49,795 nt of DNA from Patescibacteria group bacterium (GTDB lineage: Bacteria > Patescibacteriota > Microgenomatia > UBA8517): assembly GCA_038062745.1 (NCBI GenBank), contig JBBTWO010000019.1, positions 1 to 49,795 on the forward strand, given 5' to 3'. Below, piece after piece: positions 27,249-34,797 of the stretch. The position numbers were made by a program, and so were the translations under genes. Under the pieces are notes generated by a model. It was not told where the DNA came from, searched no databases, and saw only the letters and a list, made by a program, of their open reading frames with translations. Position 1 is the stretch's first letter. Each line of letters opens with the position of its first letter.

Positions 27249-28037
27249 ATGAAAAATTATCTGCCTAGATTATTTATTTTATTAGCCATAATATTTATTT
27301 ATGCTAGTGGTAATGTATCTACTGTTTATTCTCAAGACCAAGCTATATTTCCAGGACTTGGTGCTTCTCTTGAGATATCTGGTGACAATATCACCGACGG
27401 TAATGTAATTTGCTCAAACGACGAACAAGGTTACGCGCTGTGTAGTAAAGAATATGATCCTTCAATGTTTGGCGTAGTTAACTTAGTTCCTGCAGCAGCT
27501 TTTGAAAGCACTGCCCAAGGTTACTATATAGTTGTTCATGATAGTAACGCCAATGTAAAAGTTACTTCAGTCAATGGAAATATAAAGTCTGGAGATATAA
27601 TTACTACATCAAAGACCATCGGAGTAGGTCAAAAAGCATCAAGAAATGGTTATGTTTTGGGAACCGCCTTAACAGAATATAATTCTGATGACACAAATGC
27701 AGTTGGAGAAGTGGTGGTTTCCATTAACATTCATCCAACAGTTGATTTGTCAGATGCCAAAGCCAACCTGTGGCAGGTAATAAAGGAGGGCTTTAGTGTT
27801 CCAGTCTGGGGACCACTTACTTCCTTGAGGTATATCCTGGCAGCCTTCATGATTGTCATTTCTTTCATATTAGGATTTATCTACTTTGGCAGAGTTGTTA
27901 AGACTGGAGTTGAGGCACTGGGACGCAATCCATTAGCAGGAAGAATGATACAGTTAACAGTAGTATTCAATATTTTGTTAACTATTGTTATAGTTTTGGT
28001 AGGCTTGGGAATTGCTTACCTAATTCTAATTTTGTAA
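27249..28037 (+). CDS. exported beta-domain fused to an ATP synthase subunit-c-like hairpin lacking the ion-binding carboxylate
   Basis: Signal-like N-terminus; [25 protein letters not shown]...VLGTAL; two C-terminal TMs joined by [11 protein letters not shown] (c-subunit R-N/Q-P loop); no D/E in the last helix. Confidence 0.7.
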
Positions 28038-28041
28038 TTTT

Positions 28042-29763
28042 ATGTTCAACTTTTTTTCTCTATTTAAAAAAAACTACAACTTTAAAAATGTAGGCATAAA
28101 CCCGGTAGTCCTTTTGGTTCTAGATGGTTGGGGATTAGCTCCAGCTTCTGCAGGCAACCCAATACCCATGGCCAAGACACCCAACATGAATTCTTTGATG
28201 GGGCAATATCCCCACACTGAACTAATTGCCTCTGGTGAATCAGTTGGTCTGCCGGCAAACGAAGTAGGCAACACTGAAGTAGGCCACTTAAATTTAGGAG
28301 CAGGTAGAACCATCTATCAGGATTTGAAACGCATCAATATTGCAATTGAAAACGGCAGATTTTTTGATAATGAAGCTTTTGTAAATGCAGTCAAACATGT
28401 CAAACAAAATGCATCAAACCTACACATAATAGGTCTTGTTTCCTCGGGTAACGTCCATTCTTCACTGAGTCACTTTTTTGCTTTGCATAAATTTTGTCAA
28501 AAATATGCCATTAAAAATCTTTACCTGCATTTGTTTACCGATGGTCGTGATGCGCCACCAAAAGAGGCGCTTGATATTGTCGGCAAGATTGAGGGGGAAT
28601 TAAAAACTTCTGGATTTGGAACTATCGCCAGCGTTAGTGGCAGATATTATGCCATGGATCGTGACAGGCGATGGGATCGCACTAAATTGGCATACGAGGC
28701 TATTGTTTCAGGTCTTGGTCCAACAGCTTCTTCAGCACTTGATGCCATTAAAGGCTCATATGATAACGGTAAAACTGACGAGTTTGTTGTTCCAACTGTA
28801 ATAACAAAAGATGGTAAGCCAGTTGCAACTTTAAATGATAATGATGCAGCCATCTTTTTTAACTTCAGAATTGACCGGCCAAGACAATTAACCATGGCAA
28901 TTACCGCTTCGGACTTTAAGCAAATTGCTTCTTCCTGGGAATTCGATCCATATGCAGTTAAATATGACTTTAAAGAAGGCAGGGATGAGAAGAAATTGGT
29001 TCTGGCCGATCCTTTTGATAGGCAAAAGATTGTCAAAAATCTGTTTTTTGTCACCATGACTGAATATCAAAAAAGTTTGACCGTATCAGCGATTGCCTTT
29101 CCACCAGAAATTGTTGACCAAAGCCTACCCCAGATACTTTCTGACAAGGGCGTCAAGCAAATGCATATGTCAGAAAGTGAAAAGGAGCGATTTGTGACTT
29201 ATTATTTTAATGGTCTGCGGGAAGGATTATTGCCCAATGAAGAGAAACTCATTGTCCCGTCTCCCAAAGTTGCTACCTATGACAAAAACCCTCAAATGAG
29301 TGTGTTTGCCTTAGTTGAGAAGTTTAAGGAAACCATTTCAAAAAATATTTACAAGTTTTTCATTGTAAATTTTGCTAACCCCGACATGGTGGCGCACACT
29401 GGCAATTTGGCTGCCACAATTGCCGCTTTGCAAGCCACAGATATGGCAGTTGGGGAGGTAGTTAAAGCAGTTTTGGGAGTTGGGGGAACACTGTTGATTA
29501 CTGCAGACCATGGAAATGCAGAGGAACTATTAACATTTGAAAATACATCCTACTTTTTCACTTCTGCTAAGGGGACCATTAATACTGATCATTCAAACAA
29601 TCCAGTTCCATTAATTATTGTTGCCAAAGACTTGCAAGGCAAGAATATTGGTTTACCCAAAGGGACACTTGCAGATATAGCCCCTACAATACTAAACTTA
29701 ATGGGAATAGCTATTCCTGAAAAAATGACGGGAAGAGATTTATTGCAAGCTTTAAAAATATGA
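28042..29763 (+). CDS. gpmI: 2,3-bisphosphoglycerate-independent phosphoglycerate mutase (divergent)
   Basis: LVLDGWG, GNTEVGHLNLGAGR, FTDGRD, GRYYAMDRD.RW, NFRIDR, NPDMVAHTG, TADHGNAE, LADIAPT. Confidence 0.9.
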   Translation: MFNFFSLFKKNYNFKNVGINPVVLLVLDGWGLAPASAGNPIPMAKTPNMNSLMGQYPHTELIASGESVGLPANEVGNTEVGHLNLGAGRTIYQDLKRINIAIENGRFFDNEAFVNAVKHVKQNASNLHIIGLVSSGNVHSSLSHFFALHKFCQKYAIKNLYLHLFTDGRDAPPKEALDIVGKIEGELKTSGFGTIASVSGRYYAMDRDRRWDRTKLAYEAIVSGLGPTASSALDAIKGSYDNGKTDEFVVPTVITKDGKPVATLNDNDAAIFFNFRIDRPRQLTMAITASDFKQIASSWEFDPYAVKYDFKEGRDEKKLVLADPFDRQKIVKNLFFVTMTEYQKSLTVSAIAFPPEIVDQSLPQILSDKGVKQMHMSESEKERFVTYYFNGLREGLLPNEEKLIVPSPKVATYDKNPQMSVFALVEKFKETISKNIYKFFIVNFANPDMVAHTGNLAATIAALQATDMAVGEVVKAVLGVGGTLLITADHGNAEELLTFENTSYFFTSAKGTINTDHSNNPVPLIIVAKDLQGKNIGLPKGTLADIAPTILNLMGIAIPEKMTGRDLLQALKI

Positions 29764-32240: not shown

Positions 32241-33123
32241 GAAACAAATAGATAGTCAAATAAATTATTTGGAAACACTGCAAAAACTCACCCAAGCATA
32301 TGCCGAGATTTCTTCGAGCCGCATGATGAAGGTGCGGGGAACGGTTCTTTCAACGCGTGATTTTTTGGAAAACCTGGATGAGATTTTTAAAGAAGTTAGG
32401 GATTCCTATCGATCTGAAGTTGAGAAATTGTCCAAAAAATCGGGCAAAAGTCAAAAGTTAACATTTTTAGCTCATAATGGAAAAACTGTCAGTGTATATC
32501 TTTCTGCCAACACCGGCCTGTATGGCGAGATCATGCAAAAAACATTTAACAAGTTTATGGAAGAAGTGGAAACTAAGGGCACAGAAGCGACAATTGTTGG
32601 CCGACTTGGGCTGTCGCTTTTTTTGTCCCGTCAGCCAAAGATGCCATACACTTACTTTGACTATCCCGATTATGGAGGAGACAAAGCAAAGTTGGCCGAG
32701 ATTGTCAGACACCTGGTGCAGTATGAATCAATCCATGTATTTTTTGGCAAATTCCACAATGTTGTCATCCAAGAACCAGATAGTGTGGACATTAGCGCCC
32801 AGACACCAATTTCAACTCTGTCAGATAAAATTACTCCCAAAAAAGATGTTGTCAAATATATTTTTGAACCTACATTGGAAGAAATATTGATGTTTTTTGA
32901 ATCAGAAATGTTTGGTTCTGTTTTTGAACAGGCAATGAATGAGTCCCAATTGGCCAAATTCTCCTCGAGAATGTTGGCAATGGACAGAGCCTCTCAAAAC
33001 ATTAAAGACAGTATTAGCGGCGTAAAATTTGACGGTTTAAAACTCTCCCATAGACTGTTGAACAGAAAGCAAATAAACTCAGTAAGTGGTCTTTTTGCTA
33101 CTGAATATTCACAAGACATATGA
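32233..33123 (+). CDS. atpG: F1-type ATPase subunit gamma (divergent)
   Basis: [40 protein letters not shown]; lies between alpha and beta; ATG 32233. Confidence 0.88.
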
Positions 33124-34550
33124 CTACAGATACAAACGAAGGTAAAATTATCAGCTTAAGAGGTCAGATTATTGAGGTTGAGTTTGGTGGTGCTAATAAG
33201 CCAATGATGCACGACTTATTGTTTGTGAAGGATCAGCCACAGATTAAAATGGAGGTTTATTCATCTTCCGGTCCAAATAGATTCTATTGTTTGGCCTTAA
33301 CCTCAAAACACACCCTCTCAAAACTTAACGTTGTGGTTAATTCTGGCCAGCAAATTATGTTTCCTACGGGACTGAAAATGCTTGGTCGGGCAGTTAACCT
33401 TTTTGGCGAGCCTTTGGACACACTTGGAGAATTAAAAACAGATACCAGTTTGCCAATCCACAAAACCATTGATGCCCGAAGCAATATTGTTACCAAAAAG
33501 GAACTGCTGGAAACTGGCATCAAAGTAATTGATCTGTTTTCACCATTTGTTAAAGGTGGCAAAATGGGCTTGTTTGGTGGCGCAGGGGTGGGTAAAACCA
33601 TGTTATTAACGGAAATCCTGCACAATGTCGTTAAACTCCATGAAGACAAAGCCGTCTCGGTTTTCTCAGGCGTTGGCGAGCGTTCTCGTGAGGGCCATGA
33701 ATTGTATTTGGCTCTTCAACAAAGTGACACTTTGAAAAATTCAACCGTAGTTTTTGGATCAATGGGCGAAAATCCAGCCGTTAGATTTTTGTCTGCTTTT
33801 TCAGCTTTAACACTGTCAGAATATTACCGGGATGAACTCAACAAAGATGTTTTGTTTTTTATTGACAATGTTTTCAGATTTGCTCAGGCAGGCAATGAAA
33901 TTTCAACGCTTACCCACACTCTGCCGTCGGAAGATGGCTATCAGGCAACACTTGAGAGTGAGATGTCAGTTTTCCACGAAAGATTATCATCAACCGACAA
34001 AGGGGTAGTCAGTTCGGTTGAAGCCGTGTATGTTCCGGCAGATGATTTATTAGACCACGCAGTTCAAACCATTTTTCCATATCTTGACTCGGTAATTGTT
34101 TTGTCGCGAGCCGTGTATCAGGAAGGCATCTTGCCGGCAATTGATGTTATTTCATCAGGCTCTTCAGCGCTTGACCCGGAAATTGTTGGGACAGAGCATC
34201 ACCGAATTGCTTTGGAAGCCCGAGTACTTCTGAAAAAAGCTGAGAATGTTGAAAGAATAGTCTCGTTGGTGGGAGAAGGGGAATTGTCAGGAGAAGATCA
34301 AGCAATCTTCAGACGTGCCAGGAGACTTAAAAACTTTATGTCCCAGCCTTTCTTTGTAGCAGAATCGCAAAAAGGCCAGAAGGGAAAATTTGTCAGCATT
34401 AAAGATACCGTTACCGACGTTGGCGATATATTGGCTGGTAAGTATGATACAGTTGCTGAAGAACAATTTTTGTTTATAGGTACCGCCAAAGAAATTGGCA
34501 CCAAATTAGCAGATGGAACCCAACCGGCCCAACCAGCAGTCAACCAATAA
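33120..34550 (+). CDS. atpD: F1-type ATPase subunit beta (divergent)
   Basis: [24 protein letters not shown] catalytic Glu, [38 protein letters not shown]. Confidence 0.93.
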
Positions 34551-34797
34551 TCAACTGCAATTAACAGTCAGAGATAGAACAACTACTCTTTTTAATGGAG
34601 AAATCAAAAATCTTTCTTCAGTTAACGAAAAAGGGAAATTTGATATTTTGGGAGAGCATGCCAATTTTATTTCAATAGTAAAAGAGAAACTAATTGTTCG
34701 CTTGTTGGACGGTAAACAACAAGAAATACCAATTGATCAAGGAGTATTGAAAGTTAGGGAAAACAAGATTGTAATTTTCTTGGGAATTAAAACTTAG
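34513..34797 (+). CDS. atpC: F1-type epsilon subunit, beta-sandwich only
   Basis: [14 protein letters not shown] and GVLKV motifs; C-terminal helices absent. Confidence 0.8.

Follow-up and report, generated by a model that had tools for sequence, protein, structure and literature searches.

An F1-like ATPase cluster in Patescibacteria that lacks subunit a and carries a remodelled, ectodomain-bearing homologue of the c subunit

Mycoplasmas carry F1-derived alpha, beta and gamma subunits beside or instead of a canonical ATP synthase, and these type 2 and type 3 F1-like ATPases have no subunit a and are presumed to use ATP for work at the cell surface; their clusters reportedly lack homologues of the c, b or delta subunits. 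Here we describe a cluster of eight genes at positions 27249-34797 of a 49,795-nucleotide contig (JBBTWO010000019.1, the whole of which is referred to as the window) from an ultrasmall groundwater bacterium of the Patescibacteria, whose genome assembly (GCA_038062745.1; G000) comprises 842,639 bases in 81 contigs and is 88.73% complete. The cluster encodes a distinct paralogous F1-like ATPase, termed type A here, and is no damaged ATP synthase. Its first gene encodes a true homologue of the c subunit that has been remodelled and, judging from sequence, the complex probably spends ATP on cell-surface work and makes no ATP.

Among described systems type A would seem to work most like the mycoplasma F1-like ATPases, yet its subunits fall under the cut-offs of their families. 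For type 2, the gliding motor of M. mobile (G1-ATPase; MMOB1660 and MMOB1670; NF045858 and NF045863), the window proteins score 368.5 against a cut-off of 850 and 352.5 against 600, and for type 3 (MSC_0618 and MSC_0619, beside MIB-MIP; NF045934 and NF045936) 386.4 against 570 and 257.8 against 520. The type 2 beta has a long N-terminal extension whereas the window beta, of 476 amino acids, has none, and type 3 has MIB-MIP adjacent whereas the neighbours in the window are the c-like fusion, gpmI and a giant gene headed by a helix-turn-helix (HTH) domain (MIB and MIP were not searched for). Type A, which comes from a different phylum, has also retained b and delta, together with a c homologue to which an ectodomain is fused.

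Canonical F1Fo (atpBEFHAGDC) shares with type A the order b-delta-alpha-gamma-beta-epsilon, the catalytic motifs and a c hairpin with a GRNP loop, but type A is without subunit a, the c carboxylate and the GxGxGxG motif, has an ectodomain of ~140 amino acids and has an epsilon without C-terminal helices. N-ATPases (TIGR03305, TIGR03324) are likewise encoded, in some bacteria, by an additional F-type operon that accompanies the main one; the window proteins stay below their cut-offs (beta 424.6 against 752, alpha 364.9 against 750.5) and have no subunit a, whereas N-ATPases are said to keep both a and c with a Na+ site, in the order beta-epsilon-I-R-a-c-b-alpha-gamma. The flagellar/type III ATPase FliH-FliI-FliJ is also an F1 relative sitting on a membrane ring and spending ATP on a surface structure, but its ATPase is a homohexamer encoded by one gene; the window alpha and beta score ~190 bits against cut-offs of 380-605, and no export-gate genes were found among the conserved neighbours of 62 type-A loci. 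Phage tailspike auto-chaperone/barrel domains (phi29 gp12, 3gqh) and capsid decoration proteins share the fold of the ectodomain, which here however belongs to a cellular protein and precedes a membrane hairpin, with identities of only 10-24%. The literature searched describes neither a c-subunit fusion nor an F1-like cluster without subunit a in bacteria of the candidate phyla radiation; a 2026 preprint may cover the cluster in its supplements.

The eight open reading frames (ORFs) lie on the plus strand and are linked by one 4-nt gap and otherwise by overlaps of 4-38 nt. They encode, in order, the c-like fusion (27249-28037, 262 amino acids), gpmI (28042-29763, 573 amino acids), a b-like peripheral-stalk subunit (29760-30335, 191 amino acids), a short delta/OSCP-like subunit (30310-30759, 149 amino acids), the F1-like alpha (30756-32240, 494 amino acids), gamma (32212-33123, 303 amino acids) and catalytic beta (33120-34550) subunits and a short epsilon (34513-34797, 94 amino acids). 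A sequence-only reading of this DNA had put forward this order and tight coupling, intact catalytic motifs, a divergent upstream neighbour and a toxin-antitoxin pair downstream, and the ORF list, the translations and the Pfam matches bear out all of these.

Alpha matched PF00006 with 227.8 bits and has the Walker A sequence GDRKTGKT and the arginine finger SVTRVG, while its TIGR00962 score of 397.3 bits is under the cut-off of 484.45. Beta matched PF00006 with 202.8 bits and TIGR01039 with 484.9 bits, just over the cut-off of 462.85; it keeps GGAGVGKT and GERSREG, and its DELSEED loop is degenerate (GELSGED). Gamma was recognised by PF00231 (102.6 bits, cut-off 39.9) and scored 82.8 bits with TIGR01146 (cut-off 194.45); its TTG start gives 303 amino acids and an ATG seven codons downstream is possible too. 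The delta match to PF00213 (32.1 bits, cut-off 22.3) covers profile positions 79-169 only, and b, with one N-terminal transmembrane (TM) helix and a long helical tail, gave weak NCBIfam subunit-B matches (E 1.3e-3 to 1e-2). Epsilon (PF02823, 37 bits, cut-off 27) consists of the beta-sandwich only, without the C-terminal inhibitory helices, and type-A epsilons measure 83-110 amino acids against 134-144 in the canonical operons of relatives. Across type A the motifs are well retained, with the beta Walker A in 50 of 51 sequences, beta GERxREG in 44 of 51 and the alpha arginine finger in 46 of 48.

The c-like protein was modelled with AlphaFold2 from an alignment of 120 sequences (mean predicted local distance difference test score 88.8). 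The model comprises a signal peptide (residues ~1-29), a beta-rich ectodomain (residues ~30-170; 27336-27758) whose beta domain spans 37-164, a short helix (residues 170-183) and a c-subunit-type hairpin (residues 187-261; 27807-28031), whose two helices (187-226 and 230-261) flank a GRNP loop. Pfam gave no match to the protein, its ectodomain included, and no named ectodomain in five family members of 480-539 amino acids. Comparison by hhalign with 11 canonical c subunits of relatives gave a probability of 92.6% (E 4.6e-7), and in Foldseek searches the hairpin superposed on solved F-type c subunits (Chloroflexus 9itj_H) with 28% identity, a root-mean-square deviation of 2.0-2.5 and a TM(target) of 0.59-0.77. 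The best matches of an hmmsearch against the PDB were also c chains (E 0.23-0.57), and the copy in the closed genome G070 matched PF00137 at E 0.037. The cytoplasmic loop reads GRNPLA against GRNPEA in canonical c.

Twenty residues beyond the loop arginine, Glu is found in 10 of 10 aligned c subunits of relatives (canonical or F2) and in none of 17 c-like fusions; the window protein has Ile there and Asn at R+15. No Asp or Glu occurs at positions 12-29 of the second TM helix (TM2) in any of the 120 family members, in which position 20 is Ile (102), Val (10) or Leu (4). The first gene thus stands as it had been described from sequence alone, as c-like, fused to a further domain and lacking the membrane carboxylate. 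Bulky residues also take the place of the inner-helix GxGxGxG packing motif of canonical c. Homologues of the c-like protein numbered 1583 at E<=1e-3, with named examples from Woesebacteria and Microgenomates and several labelled subunit c by JGI, and a profile of the hairpin recovered 1,493 clusters at 50% identity, the hairpin being C-terminal throughout the best 150. A four-copy complex prediction of residues 30-262 scored 0.07 against a mark of 0.42, which bears neither way on ring formation.

The ectodomain has its structural relatives among phage proteins. Foldseek matches in the PDB (E 3.8e-4 to 4.6e-3) include the C-terminal fragment of phi29 gp12 (3gqh), and BFVD gave 33 matches at E<=0.001, with phage preneck-appendage and tail proteins at E as low as 7.9e-11. 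Its structural neighbours in the Atlas include clusters with Peptidase_G2, which we take as a lead only.

The sequence-only reading had found no subunit-a gene in the operon and had left its absence from the rest of the genome to be searched. PF00119 (subunit a) gave no match at E<=10 in the genome of the window, nor was it found in the closed genomes G070, G532 and G389 or in G221 and G255 (closed or nearly closed), which have the same cluster; a control search of 14 named genomes detected it in 9, and the other five include organisms with an A/V-type enzyme. No PF00137 match over the cut-off was present in G070, G532, G389, G165 or G049, and a match on another contig of the window's own genome (C7, E 0.021) was rejected as noise, in an ORF without c-like features. 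That genome has no further alpha/beta pair either, its third PF00006 match being Rho. Neither atpB nor a canonical atpE was thus found elsewhere in the 88.73% complete genome or in the three closed ones, and since closed genomes with the same cluster lack both genes the absence of subunit a is not an assembly gap. Clustering of the neighbours of the 62 type-A loci revealed no other conserved membrane protein to stand in for subunit a.

To place type A beside the canonical enzyme we used a sample of 201 genomes of the class, in which atpB, fusion and beta were cross-tabulated by hand from listed rows. There was an atpB match over the cut-off in 110 and a beta gene in 136, and at least 72 had a full-length c-like fusion. 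One of the 201, G068, is flagged as unpublished and is not the sole basis of any claim. Among these 72 listed genomes with the fusion 47 have atpB too and 25 do not, and in at least 56 a beta gene lies no more than 9 kb from the fusion gene. In closed genomes the two operons are both readable, and type A (c-like-b-delta-alpha-gamma-beta-short epsilon) lies hundreds of kb from the canonical operon (a-c-b-delta-alpha-gamma-beta-epsilon, with a c of 68-75 amino acids). This coexistence with a separate canonical F1Fo operon in many relatives rules out simple decay and mis-assembly. In other classes the cluster was found in 26 genomes of the same phylum within a 401-genome sample, with linkage checked in five. 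Many of the records with the cluster (L041, L045, L047 and L048 among them) are titled 'uncultured Gammaproteobacteria' or 'uncultured Pseudomonadales', which look like automatic mislabels of Patescibacteria metagenome-assembled genomes. Within the family of the window's genome, the closed genomes G002, G038, G063 and G085 have no beta gene and no atpB, and as they hold neither system both the canonical and the type-A systems have been lost repeatedly in one family.

Sequence divergence sets type A well apart. Canonical betas are 64-75% identical among themselves across the phylum whereas type-A betas are 37-46% identical to them. With TIGR01039 a canonical beta scores 807.7 bits against 484.9 for the window and 436.4, under the cut-off, for a second type-A locus (L099), and with TIGR00962 a canonical alpha scores 816 bits against 397.3 and 393.5; neither type-A locus comes up to any N-ATPase or mycoplasma model. 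Compared with 57 solved F1 betas in the PDB, a canonical Patescibacteria beta reaches 579-714 bits and the window beta 346-420, while the 58th solved chain, the Mycoplasma G1-ATPase beta (9io5_A), has 417.2 bits to the canonical Patescibacteria beta; by these scores (346-420 versus 417 bits) the type-A beta is about as far from ordinary F1 as the beta of the gliding motor. A beta tree of 76 rows, hand-picked (68 of 111 betas plus that of the window), built with a 'quick' method from Patescibacteria only and rooted on 8 alphas, gave the canonical Patescibacteria clade a support of 99 (Shimodaira-Hasegawa-like approximate likelihood ratio test), within a group including three other cluster types (97). 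All 28 type-A rows fall outside this canonical-containing group, a core of 24 rows having a support of 99 and the whole type-A group 84, so that a place for the window beta inside the canonical synthases, named at the outset as the outcome that would speak against a separate machine, was not found in this tree.

Conservation of the gene order was followed in 49 loci with the fusion protein, drawn from 185,579 species genomes. The c-like gene followed by alpha, gamma, beta and epsilon was found in 37 of the 49, spanning several candidate phyla, while 7 loci were cut by contig ends and 5 differ; the b family is present in 49 of 62 type-A loci and the delta family in 44 of 62. The first gene is thus conserved with the operon. 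Synteny across Patescibacteria, which the sequence-only reading had put up for testing over all eight genes, does not extend to gpmI, which lies between the c-like gene and b in 28 of the 49 loci and is missing from the remainder. On this distribution gpmI, a 2,3-bisphosphoglycerate-independent phosphoglycerate mutase (TIGR01307, 571 bits, cut-off 330.65), is a lineage-specific passenger or insert and no core part. Linkage of gpmI to ATPase genes nevertheless recurs, inside the type-A operon in Woesebacteria and beside the canonical operon elsewhere: in two genomes of one family it lies just upstream of canonical atpB, with one 128-amino-acid ORF in between in L090 (8985-10532, plus strand) and directly adjacent in L094 (251-1822, minus strand). 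Compared between the window and its closest relative (L041), all eight genes have a proportion of nonsynonymous differences (pN) of 0.13-0.38, far under that of synonymous differences (pS, 0.70-0.84), which marks the cluster as being under selection; in seven of the eight the synonymous sites are saturated (pS 0.75-0.84) and yield no dN/dS, and only pN and pS are given.

Giant surface proteins are regular neighbours of the cluster. Divergently upstream in the window, at 22902-27095 on the minus strand, lies a gene for a protein of 1397 amino acids whose N-terminal MerR/HTH_17 domain (residues 9-55) is cytoplasmic and is followed by a single TM helix and, outside the cell, a right-handed beta-helix (PF00376 50.3, PF12728 41.9, PF13229 65.6 and PF05048 56.1 bits). 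In 42 of 49 related loci a giant gene headed by such an HTH-TM module lies upstream of the c-like gene in divergent orientation, and neighbouring giants of relatives carry Peptidase_S74, a tail-fibre chaperone domain. The ectodomain of the c-like protein itself recurs in giant proteins of 1000-6900 amino acids, which by a hand count of the matches listed usually lie within ~30 kb of the cluster on the same contig (in about 20 of the 28 genomes with both among those matches). The HTH-TM module is also fused to the c-like protein in 3 of 10 long family members (P0199, P0261, P0263), which have one or two HTH_17 domains and a TM helix at the N-terminus in place of the signal peptide. In the closed genome G070 (L107, 7428-16593) a 1501-amino-acid Peptidase_S74 protein, the c-like protein, alpha, gamma, beta and epsilon are encoded on one strand.

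At the level of sequence type A has an alpha3beta3-type head with its catalytic motifs intact and a shaft of gamma and short epsilon, most lineages also retaining a b/delta stalk, and its conserved membrane partners are only the single-TM b and the c homologue with its secreted tailspike-chaperone-like domain. On balance we lean towards the type-A complex being an ATP-powered device that moves, holds or assembles surface fibres, and no ATP synthase. In F-type enzymes the c loop binds gamma and epsilon, and subunits a and c carry out ion transfer. Given these established roles, the c-like protein would dock to gamma and epsilon through its conserved GRNP loop and oligomerise, and the enzyme would run in the direction of ATP hydrolysis only, with no ion movement by an a/c mechanism. 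Force passed through the c-like oligomer would cross the membrane to the ectodomains and from there reach the giant tail-fibre-like proteins encoded alongside. A more specific version, possible but in our view rather doubtful, has F-type rotors turned into transmembrane mechanical transducers, in which an ion-blind c-ring bearing a crown of ectodomains is turned or flexed by ATP hydrolysis and powers giant adhesins. The crown domains would be tailspike-chaperone-like here and an NHL propeller in another cluster type, the output would be extracellular torque, and adhesins could be powered in this way on cells with no membrane potential to spare.

Several observations weigh against an ATP-driven surface device built in this manner. 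With subunit a missing, it is not obvious what membrane stator would take up the torque reaction, and the closed genome G070 is without b and delta genes. As bulky residues stand in for the GxGxGxG motif, the c-like protein may assemble into something other than a c-ring. In the middle of TM2, five residues ahead of the canonical site, 87 of the 120 family members have Asn and 32 have His, which may have a coupling role. In 5 of the 49 loci the c-like gene has no ATPase genes behind it. The idea that the adjacent giants carry the same ectodomain was rejected for this genome, a hidden Markov model of the domain giving a best E of 0.02 (score 2.0) against the two giants of the window. The beta tree is without other phyla and the long type-A branches may be pulled to the alpha outgroup. 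In the family of the window's genome no beta gene was present in 9 of 11 sampled genomes, four of them closed, so the system is dispensable.

An alternative that we consider unlikely, while taking it seriously, is a platform for fibre assembly or anchoring and not a rotor, in which the ectodomain, behaving like the intramolecular chaperone at the C-terminus of phage tailspikes, would template or hold trimers of the neighbouring beta-helix giants at the membrane and the ATPase would act from the cytoplasmic side as an energy source or checkpoint, much as FliH/I/J serves a type III export gate. It would account for the likeness of the ectodomain to the phi29 gp12 fragment and to models of 'preneck appendage' proteins, for the Peptidase_G2 lead and for the Beta_helix or Peptidase_S74 domains of the neighbouring giants; the window giant has a beta-helix without the ectodomain, so that the domain could act in trans, and the lack of b and delta in G070 fits a non-rotary use. 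Such a platform does not explain, however, why conservation of gamma, epsilon and the GRNP docking loop matches that of rotary enzymes, the retention of b and delta in most of the 62 loci is hard to explain without a stator function, and the giants have signal anchors of their own and need no special export route.

We think it quite improbable that the complex is still ion-coupled, with an unrecognised stator or channel replacing subunit a and the mid-membrane Asn or His replacing the carboxylate. That polar residue would be the natural candidate, and nine of the 120 family members have a Glu near the cytoplasmic end of TM2; but Asn is neither protonated nor deprotonated, and this Glu (position 9) lies at the end of the loop and not in the middle of the membrane. 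No conserved multi-TM protein accompanies the 62 loci, and the closed genomes that hold only type A gave no PF00119 match.

That the c-like gene is a mere neighbour, and the F1-like proteins a soluble or b-anchored ATPase, is less probable again. Besides the five loci lacking ATPase genes behind the c-like gene, one genome (G153) has such a gene away from any ATPase genes and another (G016) has a type-A-like beta and no c-like match among the matches listed. This reading runs against the order conserved in 37 of the 49 loci in several candidate phyla and found also in other classes, the coupled start and stop codons, the conserved F1-docking loop and the distant cluster types A-prime, B and C, in which an F1-like set is likewise accompanied by a c-like hairpin fusion. 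An ordinary ATP synthase whose atpB and atpE are unassembled, too diverged or recently lost would suit an incomplete genome in 81 contigs but is hardly credible when closed genomes with the same cluster lack these genes, many genomes hold both systems at separate places, and all eight genes are intact with pN far under pS and their catalytic motifs kept.

Patescibacteria appear to hold many F-type paralogues. A 'type A-prime' cluster in other classes (L155, L156, L157, L159) begins with a c-like fusion of 272-306 amino acids followed by b, delta, alpha, gamma, beta and a short epsilon; its fusions, including that of L165, match the window protein at E 1e-9 to 1e-14 and have Gln, Glu or Ser in place of Asn. 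The c-like copy of L165 (G260) is without adjoining ATPase genes and the matching operon lies elsewhere on the same contig (L158). In a second a-less cluster, 'type B' (L146 in G208, L147 in G204, L149 in G276), a b-like protein, a protein of ~188 amino acids, alpha, gamma, beta and a short epsilon stand directly behind a MacB-type ABC transporter (permease with PF02687 and PF12704, ATPase with PF00005, annotated in L146), ORFs of the same size being found in the same order in L147 and L149. Type-B betas are ~50-52% identical to canonical ones, and L146 also encodes a 323-amino-acid protein with a terminal c-like hairpin (PF00137, E 0.0026). In L148 (G218) a gene at 13659-15152 on the minus strand encodes 497 amino acids with four NHL repeats (PF01436, 129.6 bits) and a terminal c-like hairpin that has the GRNP loop and lacks the Glu; the F1-like set downstream of this gene includes a 646-amino-acid beta. 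With NHL repeats on this hairpin, the ectodomain fused to c-like hairpins differs from one cluster type to another.

Three further loci (L152 in G253, L153 in G276, L154 in G227) have betas of 688-764 amino acids, extended C-terminally to the ATPase core, which group with type A (support 85); no GRNP hairpin protein was found nearby. Two others (L150 in G330, L151 in G305) hold a second complete a-c-b-alpha-gamma-beta-epsilon operon with a beta 48-49% identical to canonical, and L164 (G204) is an isolated beta-alpha pair in reversed order with 61% and 53% identity to canonical.

The remaining features of the window surround the operon. The 153-bp divergent intergenic region (27096-27248) between the HTH-headed giant gene and the operon is the presumed promoter; a scan of 26900-35100 gave only weak sigma-70-like matches there (9/12), on which we make no functional claim, and four terminator-like sites, fewer than the mean of 7.5 in shuffled sequences, which says nothing either way. 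Beyond the first giant lies a second giant ORF (17310-21818, minus strand, 1502 amino acids) with an N-terminal TM helix and repeated C-terminal segments that look lectin-like by eye. Downstream of the operon, at 34897-36128, an AbiEii-type toxin gene (PF08843, 68.5 bits) is preceded by a 170-amino-acid ORF, the presumed antitoxin, which overlaps it by 4 nt; the pair is also found behind the operon in the closest relative and ahead of the cluster in L082 and L084. A search of sequencing runs listed 10 DNA datasets and no RNA dataset; the former come from groundwater and soil metagenomes of 3 studies.

These findings suggest that many alpha and beta annotations in Patescibacteria belong to a different machine unable to couple to ions, and in the 25 of 72 listed cluster-bearing genomes without atpB 'complex V present', scored from alpha and beta in metabolic reconstructions, would therefore be wrong. 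Recruitment of F1 for surface work would then have happened a second time, independently of the mycoplasmas, in this case with the c subunit kept and remodelled, and type A may serve as a natural experiment in the capabilities of a c-ring that has no subunit a. Through their association with the cluster, the giant tail-fibre-like proteins would give a way to test how ultrasmall epibionts stay attached to their hosts.

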